From: Bdellovibrionota bacterium FG-1
Lineage (GTDB): Bacteria > Bdellovibrionota > UBA1018
Direction: 5' to 3'
DNA: 64,000 nt
Assembly: GCA_051382295.1 (NCBI GenBank)
Contig: JBBCAW010000005.1
Span: 1 to 64,000 of the forward strand
Shown here: positions 49,777-63,672 of the stretch, piece by piece
How positions within the stretch are numbered: the stretch's first letter is position 1
Layout: every line of letters starts with the position of its first letter
Notes under the pieces: model-generated
Databases searched by the model: none
The model's input: the letters and a program-made list of their open reading frames with translations, nothing else
What the model was told of the DNA's origin: nothing
Translations under genes and position numbers: made by a program

Positions 49777-51081
49777 TCAAACCTGATAATATTTTTCCGA
49801 CCGCGGCCCCGTAATTTGATGCCGCTTCAGCATTTCAAAAAGGGTGCTTCGGGCAATCCCTAGGGCTTGCGCCGCTCGACCGCGATTTCCGCTCGTGAGT
49901 TTGAGGGCTCTTAAAAGCATAATGCGTTGCATTTCATCCAGTGAAACCACCGGAACTCCTAGTTCCAGTTCGGGTCGAGCGTGGATATGTTCAGGGGTGA
50001 GCAAAAACTCAAAGGCCTTCTCGTCGAGCATGGCGCTATTTGGGGAGGCGAGGCCGCAGGCCCTTTCGACTCCATGGCGGAGTTCTCGAACATTTCCGGG
50101 CCAGGCATGGGCTTGCAGTCGCAGTAGCGCCTGGGCGGAGATGCCCCGTTTGAACTCTTTGGCAAACCGACGGGCTAAAAGGGCGATGTCTTTCGGCCTG
50201 GTGCGCAGCGTAGGAATTTGAATCGTGATCGAGGCTAAGCGGTAGTAGAGATCGCGCCGAAACTTGCCCTGCTCAACGAGCTGGAGCAGGGGATGATGGG
50301 TGGCGCAGAGGAGGCGGACATCCGAATGAGAAATTCGATCAGAGCCGACCGGTCGAATTTCTCCGTCTTCGAGAAAGCGGAGGAGTTTGACTTGAATGTC
50401 CAACGGAAGATCGCCGACTTCGTCCAAAAACAGCGTGCCACCGTGGGCCTGGATCAGCGCGCCGGGGCGATGGTGAGAAGCTCCCGTAAAGGCCCCTTTG
50501 ACGTGGCCAAAAAGCTCGCTTTCGACCAGGGACATCGAGAGCGCCCCACAATGAAGAGGAATAAACGGGCCGGATGCGCGTCCACTCCACGCATGAATGA
50601 GATGGGCGAGAACCTCTTTGCCCGTGCCAGTTTCGCCCGCGAGGTAAATCGAAAGAGGCGTATGCGCCGCTTTTTTTGTCAGCCAAAGGGTTTGCGTTCC
50701 TTCGTCCGTGCAGGTCAGCCAAGGTCGAATATGGGTGGGTTGGTTGGGTTGGGAGCCTAGGTCGGTTTCCCTTTCTAAAGTCAGGCGGGTTTCCCCGACT
50801 CGAATGGGAAGGCCAGCGGGCAGCTGCGCTTCTCGCACAAAAAGATCACCTAATTGTAGAGGTTCCCCCCCTTCTGCGACGCGTAGCCAAAAAGGGGATT
50901 CTTCATTTGCCGCAAAAGCCTTTTGAGGGGGTGTCCAAAGGGTGGCGGCTTCTGCGGGGACTGTCGGGTCGCGCAGCGGGATCGTGGCGGTTTCGCCACG
51001 GCCTAAAATGGCTGATCCTCTCAGGGAGAGAAGACGGGTTTCGCCGGACGGGTCTTGAATTCTGAGTTTCCATTTCATCAT
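49777..51081 (-). CDS. Sigma54-dependent activator (degenerate FHA + AAA+ + Fis HTH)
   Basis: GETGTGKE, GAFTGA, LFLDEV, WPGNVREL, HTH. Confidence 0.93.
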   Translation of the reverse strand: MMKWKLRIQDPSGETRLLSLRGSAILGRGETATIPLRDPTVPAEAATLWTPPQKAFAANEESPFWLRVAEGGEPLQLGDLFVREAQLPAGLPIRVGETRLTLERETDLGSQPNQPTHIRPWLTCTDEGTQTLWLTKKAAHTPLSIYLAGETGTGKEVLAHLIHAWSGRASGPFIPLHCGALSMSLVESELFGHVKGAFTGASHHRPGALIQAHGGTLFLDEVGDLPLDIQVKLLRFLEDGEIRPVGSDRISHSDVRLLCATHHPLLQLVEQGKFRRDLYYRLASITIQIPTLRTRPKDIALLARRFAKEFKRGISAQALLRLQAHAWPGNVRELRHGVERACGLASPNSAMLDEKAFEFLLTPEHIHARPELELGVPVVSLDEMQRIMLLRALKLTSGNRGRAAQALGIARSTLFEMLKRHQITGPRSEKYYQV

Positions 51082-60264: not shown

Positions 60265-61779
60265 CTAAATCCCCACGGTCCCTCTGCGTCCTTTATCTTG
60301 ATAGGTTTGGTGAATTCGTTCGAAGATATTGACGTTCTTATCGAGGAGCGAAATCGGGCCTTCGCCCGCGGGTCCACGACCGCCAAAGTCGGCAATGCCG
60401 TTGGGATTTTTTTGTGCGTCGTCTTTTTTCGGTAAAAACTGCGCCAGGAGTCCTGAGAGGTCGGGGCCTTTGTCGGGCGTGCCGCCGCCACCGCCGCCAG
60501 ACGCGTAGCCGCCACCTTCGTAGCCTGACCCTTTGGATGAATCCGCCATTTTGGCTTGAGGGTCGGCGTTATCGCCACCCGAAGCGGGTGCGGTTGAGGC
60601 GCCACCGTTGAAACCACCTCCACCTCCGCTGCCACCGCCGGGGGGGCCTGAGCTTGAAAATTTACCGGCTGCAGGTCCCGGGTCTATGCCAGTTTTTGGG
60701 ACGTCGGCGATCGGGCGTCCGAGGCTTCCGTTATCGGGAGTAAGAGGTGTGCTATCTTGCGCAGCTTGGACATCGCTCGTGCCAGCGCCGTTGAGTGACG
60801 TGGGCGCAGCGGGCGCGAGCGCATCGGCCGGGCCGACTTGTCTGGCGCCCATGGGTGCAAATGGACTAATGGTCGGCACTTGGTTTTCGAGAGCTTTGAG
60901 TTTGTCGGCGGTATCATCGAGTTGATTGGCGCTCATGATGTTAAAGCCTCCGGTCATCATCTGGGTTGCGCCTTGGATGATGGACATCATTCCACCGGCC
61001 ATGGCTTCTTTGGCCATTCCGCCTTGCTCGTCAGCGGCTTTGTTGGCGATGCGTTTAGTGTCCCTTTTCATCGCACCTTTCTTCATTTCAATTTCTTGAT
61101 TGCGGGCTGCTTCCTGCGCTTGTGCTTGAGATGGGCCTGGGACCACATCTGTTGTGATGTGGTATTTTTCGTTTAATTTAAAGTTTTTGACGATCCGATC
61201 GTTTACGCCGCCGTCAGTCGCTGCGCTCACAAAACCTTGGCCACCGAGTGAGCCATCACCAACTTGTGGACCCTTTTTTTCGGCTTTCAAGGCTTCTGCG
61301 CTTCCTCCTTTGATCTCTTTGGCGTTACCCTTATGGTCGGCATATTGAATCATTTGAACGAGGCCCAGGCCGGTATTGAGTCCGCCTGTGACGAGTTCGA
61401 TGTCGCCCGTGGTTCGTTGGGTAACTGCGGCGGCATGAAGTGTGGCGGATTGTGTTCCTCCTGCTGCTTGTGCGTTCATCTGTTGGGATTGCCCTACCGC
61501 TGCGGTTGAAATTTGACCTGCAGCTTGCGTGACGGCATTGGTGACTTTCGCGCCTTCGATCATGGCGCGTGTGCCACCACAGCCGTAGCGATCACCGTTA
61601 ATTCCAGCTGAAACTTTGCAATCGGAATCGTTTGTGCTGTATCCATCGGCTTCGTCCCATCCGCCGTCTCGTTCGAGTTTGGGAGTGATGGGTTTGTCCT
61701 CGGCGCGGGCCTCTCCCCCCATTCCCAATCCCACCATGAAGGTTAGCGCGAATACAAATCGTAGGCTGCGTGATTTCAT
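60265..61779 (-). CDS. Secreted Gly-rich hypothetical protein
   Basis: Signal peptide ARA, Gly-rich linker, C-terminal VNIFERIHQTY. Confidence 0.75.
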   Translation of the reverse strand: MKSRSLRFVFALTFMVGLGMGGEARAEDKPITPKLERDGGWDEADGYSTNDSDCKVSAGINGDRYGCGGTRAMIEGAKVTNAVTQAAGQISTAAVGQSQQMNAQAAGGTQSATLHAAAVTQRTTGDIELVTGGLNTGLGLVQMIQYADHKGNAKEIKGGSAEALKAEKKGPQVGDGSLGGQGFVSAATDGGVNDRIVKNFKLNEKYHITTDVVPGPSQAQAQEAARNQEIEMKKGAMKRDTKRIANKAADEQGGMAKEAMAGGMMSIIQGATQMMTGGFNIMSANQLDDTADKLKALENQVPTISPFAPMGARQVGPADALAPAAPTSLNGAGTSDVQAAQDSTPLTPDNGSLGRPIADVPKTGIDPGPAAGKFSSSGPPGGGSGGGGGFNGGASTAPASGGDNADPQAKMADSSKGSGYEGGGYASGGGGGGTPDKGPDLSGLLAQFLPKKDDAQKNPNGIADFGGRGPAGEGPISLLDKNVNIFERIHQTYQDKGRRGTVGI

Positions 61780-62299
61780 ATCTTCCCCCTAAACCACCCC
61801 AAGGCGACACACCTCAAAGGACGGTTTGTTACCTCTTGATTGTCATCTGAATTTATGTCTGAGTCAATAAGTCAAGTAATAATCGGCAGCTTGTTTTCTA
61901 TAGCATTGATTTAAAAGGCAAAATTAGGAATTCTCGGCGAGGGTGTCGGGGACGGCCATCCAGGCCTCGGCCGCTCTTGTCGCATCCATGCGACGCGGAC
62001 GCCCCTCACCTCGCCGCAGAATTCCTCGCGCCCGCCTGCGGCGAAGGAGCCCTTGCGGCATAAATACCTCACCTTTCGAGGCAAAGGGGTGGGCCGCTTC
62101 GGGCGCTTTTATTGGCTGGGCGGGCTTGCGAGTGGGATGATTAGGCAACCGCATCCCTTAGTTCGCTCCTGGATCGGAAACTTTTTTTCCGGGGTCTTCT
62201 TCTTGAAAGGCTGAGAGCTGATAGCTGACAACTCTAAATGAACCAAATCGGACAGCTCCCATCCATGAGAACACCGGTTGCGCTGCACCCGGAGCCTCC

Positions 62300-62452
62300 T
62301 CATTGATGATCTAGATAGAACAGAACCAACTTGGCTAAAAACCACAAAAACTGGGATAGAATTTTTTGAGTCCCTATTTTTTGCTTTAGTTTTTTAAGCC
62401 ATCGACGAAAAGAATAGTGTTCGGCCTTGCGACCGTTCTTCTTGTTTTTCAT
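62300..62452 (-). CDS. 50-aa cationic/hydrophobic peptide (cassette 1)
   Basis: SD AAGGAGG; MKNKKNGRK...ILSQFLWFLAKLVLFYLDHQ. Confidence 0.75.
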   Translation of the reverse strand: MKNKKNGRKAEHYSFRRWLKKLKQKIGTQKILSQFLWFLAKLVLFYLDHQ

Positions 62453-62523
62453 CGGGGTTACCTCCTTTCTTGTGAAAAGGGGGTAGCTCCATCTTTCCTG
62501 TCCGATTTGGCAGGGACCCATTG

Positions 62524-62539
62524 AGCAACTTCAGTGCCA
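62524..62539 (-). promoter_or_regulatory. Sigma54 promoter, cassette 1
   Basis: TGGCACTGAAGTTGCT. Confidence 0.8.
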
Positions 62540-62728
62540 GCGTTATCGCGATTTTCTCGATGTTTTTGCTGGAGTTTGGTTCGATACGCGGTGAGTGCGG
62601 CTGAAAGTCGGATCAGTGAATTGCAGTCTTCTTCAAAAGCTGAGTGCTAAGCGCTGATGGCTCTAAAAAAACCAAACCGGACAGCTCCCATCCATGAGAA
62701 CTCCAGTTGCGCTGCACCCCGAGCCTCC

Positions 62729-62881
62729 TCATTGATGATCTAGATAGAACAGAACCAACTTGGCTAAAAACCACAAAAACTGGGATAGAATTTTTTGAGT
62801 CCCTATTTTTTGCTTTAGTTTTTTAAGCCATCGACGAAAAGAATAATGTTCGGCCTTGCGACCGTTCTTCTTGTTCTTCAT
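62729..62881 (-). CDS. 50-aa cationic/hydrophobic peptide (cassette 2)
   Basis: Same protein as cassette 1, two synonymous differences. Confidence 0.75.
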   Translation of the reverse strand: MKNKKNGRKAEHYSFRRWLKKLKQKIGTQKILSQFLWFLAKLVLFYLDHQ

Positions 62882-62952
62882 CGGGGTTACCTCCTTTCTC
62901 ATTAAAAGGGGGTAGCTCCATCTTTCCTGTCCGATTTGGCAGGGACCCATAG

Positions 62953-62968
62953 AGCAAGGTTGGTGCCA
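62953..62968 (-). promoter_or_regulatory. Sigma54 promoter, cassette 2
   Basis: TGGCACCAACCTTGCT. Confidence 0.8.
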
Positions 62969-63170
62969 GATTTATGTGCAACTTCCGGGGGTTTTTGCCT
63001 GGGGGTTGGTTCGATACGCGGTGGGATGGTCGAAAATCGGATCAAATGCTGAAGTGATCTTCTTCTTCGAAGGCTGAGAGCTAAGCGCTGATAGCTGATT
63101 GCTCTAGAAAAACCAAATCGGACAGCTCCCATCCATGAGAACTCCGGTTGCGCTGCACCCAGAGCACTCC

Positions 63171-63326
63171 TCACGGCTGTCTTAGATAGTAGGATATTGC
63201 ATCGGCTAGAATCACTAAAACCTTGGCTAAGACGTAGAGTCGCCAAGATTTCAATTTAAGTTTTTCCAGCCGAATCCGAGACGAATAATGTTCGTTGGTC
63301 TTACGACCAATTTGTTTATTCTTCAT
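63171..63326 (-). CDS. 51-aa cationic/hydrophobic peptide (cassette 3, divergent)
   Basis: SD AAGGAGG; MKNKQIGRK...WRLYVLAKVLVILADAISYYLRQP. Confidence 0.75.
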   Translation of the reverse strand: MKNKQIGRKTNEHYSSRIRLEKLKLKSWRLYVLAKVLVILADAISYYLRQP

Positions 63327-63397
63327 CGGGGTTACCTCCTTTCTTGTTAAAAGGGGGTAGCTCCATCTTTCCTGTCCGATTTGGCAGCGACCCATCG

Positions 63398-63413
63398 AGC
63401 AAAGTTGGTGCCA
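63398..63413 (-). promoter_or_regulatory. Sigma54 promoter, cassette 3
   Basis: TGGCACCAACTTTGCT. Confidence 0.8.
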
Positions 63414-63572
63414 GGTTTATGTGCAACTTCCTGGGGTTTTTGCTGGAGTTTGGTTCGATACCCGATGAGGATGGCCGAAAATCGGATCAGTGATGGGGTG
63501 AATAGGACAGAAAGCCGGGATGGCGTGTGGGTGTATTCTGAGTGGCATGGGCCCGCAAGCTCTGGTCGTTGA

Positions 63573-63672
63573 GCAGTATCTACTGCCGCGCGGAGGCAGC
63601 TCGTGGCGTTCACCCCGACCTCGGCGCAGTGTACTGCCGCGCGGAGGCAGCTCGTGGCACTCACTCCGAGCT
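63573..63672. repeat. Two ~50-bp REP-like direct repeats
   Basis: TACTGCCGCGCGGAGGCAGCTCGTGGC at 63581 and 63632 with CTGCC/GGCAG hairpin. Confidence 0.75.

Follow-up and report, generated by a model that had tools for sequence, protein, structure and literature searches.

The mRNAs of toxin-antitoxin (TA) loci of type I such as hok/sok, ldr/rdl and ibs/sib of enterobacteria combine pairing of their 5' and 3' ends (fold-back inhibition) with an occluded site of translation initiation, encode a peptide of about 50 amino acids (aa) and occur in several chromosomal copies. RNAs that regulate and also encode a peptide have precedents in RNAIII/delta-haemolysin and SgrS/SgrT, and RNAIII/hld of Staphylococcus is a highly structured RNA that holds its ends together and encodes a small membrane-active peptide. 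The Qrr RNAs of Vibrio, small RNAs of quorum regulation, are non-coding and about 100 nt long. In the aapA1 and aapA3 mRNAs of Helicobacter, folding impedes translation and hairpins that sequester the Shine-Dalgarno (SD) sequence act co-transcriptionally, according to the available excerpts of two reports (PMC5416894, PMC6733600), and until then type I systems had been detected in Proteobacteria, Firmicutes and Tenericutes only, according to the accessible part of a third (PMC12390103). Here we describe a multicopy cassette from a 64,000-nt stretch of Bdellovibrionota bacterium FG-1 (contig JBBCAW010000005.1, positions 1 to 64,000; hereafter the window), in which a predicted sigma-54 promoter precedes a tightly folded RNA of about 270 nt that encodes a small peptide, probably of the membrane type.

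The cassette shares with hok/sok, ldr/rdl and ibs/sib the pairing of the transcript ends, an occluded initiation site, a peptide of about 50 aa and multiple copies. It differs from hok/sok in having neither a mok-like overlapping frame (the upstream ATG of the window copies is not conserved) nor a Sok-like promoter, and in that its SD is not locked by the pairing of the ends. AapA1, too, combines a basic N-terminus with a hydrophobic C-terminus, as the cassette peptide does by prediction. With aapA1/IsoA1 and aapA3/IsoA3, as described in the excerpted text, the cassette has in common a multicopy chromosomal small-peptide gene, a primary transcript with a fold that hinders translation (by prediction in the cassette) and SD-sequestering hairpins able to act during transcription (PMC5416894, PMC6733600). 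Unlike these pairs it has no demonstrated antisense RNA gene and keeps its SD locked upon in silico 3' trimming, and it carries a sigma-54-type promoter with putative activator sites, a longer and unrelated peptide (43-53 aa) and a blunt 14-bp end helix. Like Qrr1-5, in the account that the available part of one preprint gives of them (bioRxiv 10.1101/2021.07.01.450815), it consists of several paralogous short transcripts behind a sigma-54 promoter with an enhancer-binding activator, although the cassette RNA is about 270 nt long and contains a conserved, selected open reading frame (ORF). The resemblance to RNAIII/hld lies in a structured RNA with joined ends that encodes a small, predicted membrane-type peptide; the cassette differs in having no identified trans-pairing region, about 26 copies instead of one, and predicted sigma-54 control.

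The cassette unites enhancer-dependent transcription (predicted), a near-perfect complement of the 16S rRNA tail as SD, a closed and co-varying fold that runs through the ORF, and a conserved small peptide of the membrane type. Our preferred interpretation, to which we assign a probability of roughly 0.45, is that its product is a toxin-like membrane peptide whose expression is gated by an enhancer-dependent promoter together with a lock built into the RNA.

Three tandem units on the minus strand

Three units lie head to tail on the minus strand between positions 62190 and 63520 (Table 1), with start-to-start spacings of 429 and 441-445 nt according to a repeat finder and a mean column identity of 86% in their three-way alignment. 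One cassette is self-contained within about 385 nt. The leader is invariant among the three over about 70 nt and ends in GAAAGGAGGT-N7-ATG, and the trailer is conserved as well, its CTGTCCGATTTGG being the reverse complement of the leader CCAAATCGGACAG. Between unit 1 and units 2 and 3 the ORF has diverged far more than leader and trailer, and it contains a single 3-nt indel. In all three peptides the N-terminal half is basic and the C-terminal half hydrophobic. A preliminary description had placed at 62236-63500 three tandem minus-strand units, each with a sigma-54 motif, a leader with SD, a 50-51 aa peptide and a trailer complementary to the leader. All of these elements are present and the span takes in all three units, the activator sites of unit 1 extending to about 63488. 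The triplication reported there is real, but these three units are few among the approximately 26 members that the family has in the genome.

A conserved sigma-54-type promoter with paired upstream sites

Judged by its motif, a sigma-54-type promoter is conserved in front of the cassette. The exact sequence TGGCAC-N5-TTGCT occurs three times in the window, each time in a unit, against 0.12 expected matches, and none of 100 shuffles reached three. The genome's own copies align without gaps on GG-N10-GC and are exact or near-consensus, and of 18 copies in other genera 15 retain GG-N8-(T)TGC at an unchanged offset (chance 1.9% per window). Genome-wide, the family accounts for 9 of 26 matches to the strict motif TGGCAC-N5-TTGCW and for 23 of 100 matches to relaxed motifs. 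The genome contains a single rpoN gene and about 25 strong matches to the Sigma54_activat domain of enhancer-binding protein genes, and the predicted promoter would be expected to depend on such an activator.

In a promoter-anchored alignment two further elements appear upstream of the -24 GG: site A, with the consensus rGTCCgnATTTCG, about 76-62 nt upstream, and site B, CGAAATyCGRAC, about 52-38 nt upstream and an approximate inverted partner of site A. We consider these putative binding sites of an enhancer-binding protein. A crude two-site test was passed by 17 of 28 family promoters and by 3 of 360 other promoter-like sites in the genome; when these 360 were considered as further members of the regulon none of the three was convincing, and the sites were not seen in cassette copies of other genera. 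The occurrence of paired, family-specific sites at a fixed distance suggests a dedicated activator. If the start lies at the customary distance from the -12 element, it would precede the outermost pair of the closing helix by 1-4 nt. One of the strong Sigma54_activat matches lies in the window itself, in an enhancer-binding protein gene (50218-50694, minus strand, with a 446-aa open frame) at a distance of 12 kb from the cassettes.

A closed RNA fold supported by covariation

When the 36 aligned transcripts were folded one at a time, the first 20 nt of every one paired with its last 20 nt through 12-17 base pairs, and the z-scores of the minimum free energy (MFE) lay between -4.0 and -8.7 (median -6.1). 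The pairs common to at least half of the individual folds give a consensus structure of 55 pairs in seven helices. P1 closes the ends and P2 joins an anti-SD to the SD; codons 3-4 form a short helix with the Tyr-Tyr codons, and of the remaining four helices two are internal to the ORF and two belong to the trailer. In one of the ORF-internal helices CTnGAAAAAC (LEKL codons) pairs with GTTTTTCTAG (VFLA codons), joining alignment columns 137-146 with 204-213; in the other CTTGGC pairs with GCCAAG.

Covariation was assessed in a MAFFT alignment that had not been fitted to any structure. In this alignment 87.0% of the cells were paired, compared with 38-53% when the partners were slid, double-sided changes were found in 147 cells, compared with 18-39, and none of 500 shuffles reached any of these measures. 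P1 showed double-sided changes in 9 of 14 pairs with 97.8% of its cells paired, and RNAalifold agreed on this helix. Among 21 copies from other genomes, in an alignment made to the model and therefore biased in its favour, 89.8% of the cells were paired and 121 carried double-sided changes, such changes affecting 9-10 of the 14 pairs of P1 across the two copy sets. Both sets also show covariation in the SD hairpin. The alignments therefore show a co-varying closed fold with a predicted locked SD. G-U cells outnumber A-C cells (189 versus 98), which favours the sense strand as the one that folds. Conservation is bounded by the upstream sites of the promoter on one side and ends directly after GTTTGG(T) on the other. 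P1 would protect both RNA ends from nucleases.

Such covariation bears on the possibility that the family is non-functional dispersed repeat DNA, similar to a miniature inverted-repeat transposable element (MITE), whose inverted ends mimic an RNA helix. Dispersed and tandem copies, and a 13-14-nt inverted repeat that bounds about 250 nt, are what such an element would show. Its arms, however, co-vary instead of remaining constant, G-U cells exceed A-C cells, the ORF is under selection, the inverted repeat does not include the conserved promoter and putative activator sites, and there is no match to phage or plasmid collections or to an Rfam family. We regard this as the least probable of the explanations weighed here. 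A match to a characterised family or a MITE had been named in the preliminary description as one outcome that would speak against a new system; the searches returned no characterised family, and the features just listed speak against a MITE.

Two observations concern individual positions of the fold. In the helix between the LEKLK and VFLA codons a Glu-to-Lys change (GAA to AAA) in LEKLK co-varies with a silent Leu change (CTA to TTA), so that protein and RNA constraints are interlocked. The linker between P1 and P2, at 63361-63371 in unit 1 and in the other copies, is a near-invariant single-stranded A-GA-N-GGA, which together with the GGA of the SD resembles a pair of CsrA sites.

These features raise the question as to whether the cassette is primarily a dual-function regulatory RNA, in which the closed RNA, through its invariant GGGTRCAGC loop and its A-GA-N-GGA linker, base-pairs in trans or titrates a protein such as CsrA and the peptide is a second product. 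Structured non-coding RNAs commonly have z-scores of this size, the three window units differ less in leader and trailer than in the ORF, some positions predicted to be unpaired are invariant, and csrA is present as a single gene. Multicopy control by sigma-54 would resemble that of the Qrr small RNAs, for which dependence on sigma-54 and multiple copies are known from the available part of the preprint cited above (bioRxiv 10.1101/2021.07.01.450815). Against this, no target or complementary partner was identified, a search of the window for a trans-complement of the single-stranded linker giving a chance-level match only, and the CsrA sites are putative. Every full-length copy moreover retains the ORF with its start codon and a very strong SD, and most of the non-coding conservation is explained by helices that would control translation of the ORF. 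This reading therefore appears rather unlikely to us. An intrinsic terminator after the closing helix was also considered and is not universal, with at least five T among the 8 nt that start two bases past the final GG in 13 of 25 copies.

An unusually long Shine-Dalgarno sequence predicted to be held in a local hairpin

The 16S gene of the genome ends in GGATCACCTCCTTTCT, and the SD of the cassettes complements 11-16 nt of this tail, up to its full 16 nt. The family contributes 14 of the 22 complements of at least 11 nt in the genome and 21 of the 60 of at least 10 nt. In silico folding gives the SD a pairing probability of at least 0.79 in 35 of 36 copies. The lock is present in the nascent RNA as well (up to AUG+30), and the energy needed to open it has a median of 14.5 kcal/mol (range 7.6-43.7). 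By these models a trans-acting step would probably be needed to unlock it.

An SD of this length could in principle act on its own, holding 30S subunits once opened and so damping global translation, with the peptide incidental. The 14 of 22 longest complements and the high copy number agree with such titration of ribosomes. The peptide is under purifying selection, however, and a long SD fits strong translation after unlocking equally well; we know of no precedent for an SD-titrating RNA and consider this highly improbable.

The ORF and its predicted peptide

Coding sequences were located by script in 30 of the 36 aligned transcripts, the remaining six (L016, L017, L027, L029, L030 and L054) being missed by the SD pattern and found intact by separate inspection. 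All 30 scored ORFs are open and all indels keep the frame. Pairwise differences at codon positions 1, 2 and 3 are 0.38, 0.32 and 0.47, the third being the most variable, and the Nei-Gojobori ratio of non-synonymous to synonymous rates (dN/dS) has a median of 0.38 and lies below 1 in 337 of 337 pairs. In further genomes the ORF is intact in 18 of 18 full-length copies, and the three rows without it are fragments. This substitution pattern shows an ORF under purifying selection and hence, as far as sequence comparison goes, a real gene. Two additional frames were rejected: an upstream ORF from the ATG of GATGGA, where other copies read ACG or AAG, and a second ORF from a GTG in the trailer, where other copies read GTA, GCA or ATA.

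The peptides, 43-53 aa long across the family, have the consensus MKNK..YYS.R.RLEKLK.K.W.L.VLAK.LVFL....YL.Q. AlphaFold2 predicts one helix over residues 5-49 at a mean pLDDT of 75.5. The best 19-residue Kyte-Doolittle window reaches at least 1.6 in 23 of the 30 scored peptides and is always C-terminal, and the part N-terminal to this hydrophobic window carries a net charge of +4 to +14. The peptide may accordingly be modelled as a tail-anchored membrane helix, N-terminus in, with a conserved Lys or Arg within it. A homo-oligomer prediction with four copies gave no answer (score 0.03).

A peptide of this kind need not be harmful. The cassettes could instead encode non-toxic small membrane proteins that serve membrane complexes as accessory or regulatory subunits under stress or at a particular stage, a role that many small membrane proteins of bacteria have, and that are induced by an enhancer-binding protein that senses the envelope, nutrients or the stage of predation, with the RNA fold mainly stabilising the message and timing its translation. 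A plain helix of tail-anchor-like topology and a dN/dS of 0.38, which denotes a conserved protein function, would suit this, as would the fact that no antitoxin was detected in a sigma-70 scan of the window or an antisense scan of the alignment. Accessory subunits, however, are usually single-copy and syntenic with their partners, unlike some 26 dispersed copies that have no shared neighbour, and the patchy distribution among related genera, the decayed copies and the extreme lock, with its median opening cost of 14.5 kcal/mol, also argue against the proposal. Sigma-54 regulons, on the other side, are commonly tied to the cell exterior according to the accessible part of one survey (PMC3162934). 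On balance we regard small membrane proteins without toxicity as somewhat less probable than a toxin-like peptide. In that event the cassettes would still form a large unannotated family of small proteins and structured mRNAs that holds about one third of the genome's consensus sigma-54 promoters, and would point to a dedicated activator and signal.

A proposed gated, toxin-like module and its relation to type I systems

Under our preferred interpretation of a toxin-like, gated peptide, an enhancer-binding protein at the two upstream sites and the sigma-54 promoter would produce a discrete RNA of about 270 nt, and the cassette would be silent until the activator fires. The 5' and 3' ends would then pair in the 14-bp helix, with the long SD held by the local anti-SD and the ORF itself folded. 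The peptide is predicted to be membrane-active and most likely harmful to the cell when made, which would explain why its expression is gated at three levels. The first gate would be the activator-dependent promoter and the second the SD hairpin, which would block translation co-transcriptionally. As the third, a nuclease-resistant closed RNA would store the message until the hairpin is opened, for example by RNase cleavage, by an RNA or by a CsrA-like protein. Gated at three levels, the cassette would work like a type I toxin gene, and the tight sigma-54 promoter may stand in for a cognate antisense antitoxin. The resemblance to type I toxin genes rests on the three silencing levels together with the multicopy, patchy distribution and the decayed copies.

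The preliminary description had gone further and inferred a type I TA system, which the data support in part. The peptide is small (43-53 aa, below about 60 aa) and of the membrane type with a single predicted helix, the copies form arrays, the SD is occluded in 35 of 36 copies (at least 0.79) so that the primary transcript would be inert in silico, and the long-distance 5'-3' interaction typical of the hok and aapA types is seen as 12-17 closing pairs in 36 of 36. The antitoxin side and the route of activation found no such support: no convincing antisense promoter was found in the window or the 36-copy alignment, and the activation by 3'-processing and refolding seen in hok- and aapA-type mRNAs was not reproduced in silico.

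A number of results weigh against a toxin of this class. When 18 or 60 nt are cut from the 3' end in silico, the SD remains paired (median probability 0.99). As the SD stays locked locally and after trimming, the end-to-end helix is not what hides it, and activation by 3' processing along the hok/aapA1 route is not reproduced in silico. The sigma-70 scan of the window gave one promoter-like site against 1.1 expected. In the alignment an antisense sigma-70-like match occurs at one position in 23 of 36 copies, with a TTTTCC-like -35 and AATAAT as -10, but it is weak (8 of 12) and overlies the conserved Tyr-Tyr and LEKL codons, and so may be simply inherited; an RNA from it would cover the start codon and SD and is a candidate antitoxin, no more. 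About 26 copies under apparently one regulator would be unusually many for a toxin, and a C-terminal hydrophobic helix behind a long basic N-terminus differs from most type I toxins. No sequence or profile similarity was found to the known type I toxin families (Hok, Ldr, Ibs, TisB, Fst, AapA and others), and in the ESM Atlas none of the 30 nearest clusters carries a name, the nearest named one being TisB at 0.77, a score often reached by chance. Genes with TA-type domains (HEPN, PIN twice, HipA, two nucleotidyltransferase types and PBECR2) lie within 3.5 kb of the cassette at 5 of 19 loci, a count that does not by itself establish enrichment. Membership of the type I TA class is therefore not established.

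A more specific version, which we offer tentatively and as less probable than the gated toxin-like peptide as such, is that the cassettes are antitoxin-less type I-like toxin modules. In these a tail-anchored cationic membrane peptide would be silenced not by antisense RNA but by the zero-leak sigma-54 promoter of a dedicated activator and by the RNA lock, made up of the closed-end helix and the hairpin around a perfect SD. The approximately 26 copies would form the regulon of a single activator, which in a Bdellovibrionota cell that preys or is under stress could bring about, quickly and at a particular stage, dormancy, an abortive infection or permeabilisation of the membrane. If this were true they would be the first type I-like family in Bdellovibrionota. 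If the peptide is toxic, type I-like control would be possible on the basis of sigma-54 and an RNA lock without obligatory antisense RNA, and such systems would extend to Bdellovibrionota.

A family outside current annotation

Peptide and RNA both lack a match among described families, in line with the earlier remark that the peptide family was not recognised. Pfam returned no family for the peptides at E-values up to 10, and thus no match to the Hok family; NCBIfam gave nothing relevant, PADLOC no match, and PHROGs no credible match (best E-value 0.045). Rfam at E-values up to 10 gave two chance-level matches, BTnc231 and FTX_5, far below the gathering score, and phage and plasmid collections searched with blastn in distant mode gave none. 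The literature, as far as the accessible text of the sources extends, yielded no description of a type I toxin under sigma-54 control or of the cassette family, which agrees with the statement of the preliminary description that no such toxins were known. By sequence the cassette appears to represent a new peptide family and a new RNA family. The covariation data are a ready model for studying translational locking, and the family illustrates what annotation by Pfam, NCBIfam and Rfam misses.

In its own genome a DNA profile of the three units retrieved 28 rows (nhmmer), a protein profile 26 matches, and a covariance model 29 matches, of which 26 are full-length at 120 bits or more and lie on 16 contigs (Table 1). 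Tandem arrays of three occur on C5, C22, C12 and C62. A copy on C9 (C9:1357-1833) is internally deleted and three other covariance-model matches are weak or fragments. Truncated or internally deleted copies such as this one and C96:4982-5218, and stop-containing copies, show that the cassettes decay as well as multiply.

Among 40 relatives the protein profile matched in nine, with up to 18 matches per genome. Of 400 sampled genomes of the phylum 19 had matches, all of them in the order to which the window belongs, where they fall into four families (f1, 13 of 57 genomes; f2, 4 of 7; f9, 1 of 1; f6, 1 of 1); the phylum's other sampled families and orders had none, for example 0 of 100, 0 of 53 and 0 of 34. 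The covariance-model search proposed in the preliminary description recovered the RNA, beyond its own genome, in 27 of 115 other genomes of the order at 1-19 copies each. A search of public records with a sub-alignment of the peptides found the cassette in metagenome-assembled genomes labelled Bacteriovoracaceae, Oligoflexia, Bdellovibrionia, Bdellovibrio sp. and Bdellovibrionota, and 5.8 billion protein clusters yielded 51 proteins of 42-75 aa without a Pfam domain, named only 'hypothetical protein'. The family is thus real, patchy and, among the genomes sampled, restricted to one order; its patchiness, its decayed copies and the TA-type domains near 5 of 19 loci are signs of a selfish or accessory element.

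Table 1 Coordinates of the cassette units and associated features. Positions refer to the window unless a locus is named
Feature	Position	Strand	Remarks
Unit 1 upstream site A (putative activator site; GATCCGATTTTCGGCC)	63473..63488	-	~76-62 nt upstream of -24 GG; gap-free, promoter-anchored alignment of the genome's copies
Unit 1 upstream site B (putative activator site; GGGTATCGAACC)	63452..63463	-	Approximate inverted partner of site A
Unit 1 predicted sigma-54 -24/-12 promoter TGGCACCAACTTTGCT	63398..63413	-	Exact motif match
Unit 1 transcript, 277 nt	63111..63387	-	Profile and covariance-model bounds; 237 bits; MFE -114 kcal/mol, z -8.7
Unit 1 P1 5' strand (GCCAAATCGGACAG)	63372..63385	-	14-bp closing helix
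Unit 1 linker between P1 and P2	63361-63371	-	Predicted single-stranded
Unit 1 P2, SD-sequestering hairpin	63331..63360	-	Anti-SD ACCCCCTTTT against GAAAGGAGGT; SD core 63334-63343
Unit 1 ORF, 51 aa (MKNKQIGRKTNEHYSSRIRLEKLKLKSWRLYVLAKVLVILADAISYYLRQP) and stop codon	63171..63326	-	
Unit 1 trailer	63113..63170	-	Stop-proximal GAGG, GGGTRCAGC-loop helix, CTCA/TGAG hairpin, P1 3' strand (63113-63125)
Unit 2 upstream site A	63028..63043	-	
Unit 2 upstream site B	63008-63020	-	
Unit 2 predicted sigma-54 promoter TGGCACCAACCTTGCT	62953..62968	-	Exact motif match
Unit 2 transcript, 273 nt	62670..62942	-	Folding and covariance model
Unit 2 ORF, 50 aa and stop codon	62729..62881	-	
Unit 3 upstream site A	62599..62614	-	
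Unit 3 upstream site B	62578-62590	-	
Unit 3 predicted sigma-54 promoter TGGCACTGAAGTTGCT	62524..62539	-	Exact motif match
Unit 3 transcript, 273 nt	62241..62513	-	Folding and covariance model
Unit 3 ORF, 50 aa and stop codon	62300..62452	-	Peptide identical to that of unit 2
DUF4423 gene near cassette, locus L078	3018-4085		
DUF4423 gene near cassette, locus L082	6778-7587		
DUF4423 gene near cassette, locus L077	4714-5595		
DUF4423 gene near cassette, locus L073	2045-2845		
Contigs with full-length copies			C5, C62, C22, C12, C3, C23, C30, C89, C130, C56, C83, C141, C13, C41, C10, C9

Genomic neighbourhood

At the 19 loci at which context was examined the cassettes are intergenic, their neighbours are unrelated and no neighbour is shared. 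DUF4423 (PF14394), which has 34 matches genome-wide, is found within 3.5 kb of a cassette at four loci. Two of these genes are convergent with the cassette, with their stop codons 6 and 26 nt from its 3' end, so that read-through would be antisense to the cassette; one more is convergent at 375 nt and the fourth is 1.1 kb away.

In the window the array is directly followed downstream by an ORF of 504 aa (60265-61779, minus strand), which is rich in Gly, Ala and Gln, has an N-terminus resembling a signal peptide and gave no Pfam match. On the other side of the array, between unit 1 and a divergent GcvH-like gene, two 51-nt direct repeats (63581-63672, plus strand) each contain a palindrome rich in GC. 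With up to 3 mismatches allowed, the genome has 11 occurrences of a 25-mer taken from these repeats, suggesting a dispersed repeat similar to repetitive extragenic palindromic (REP) elements.

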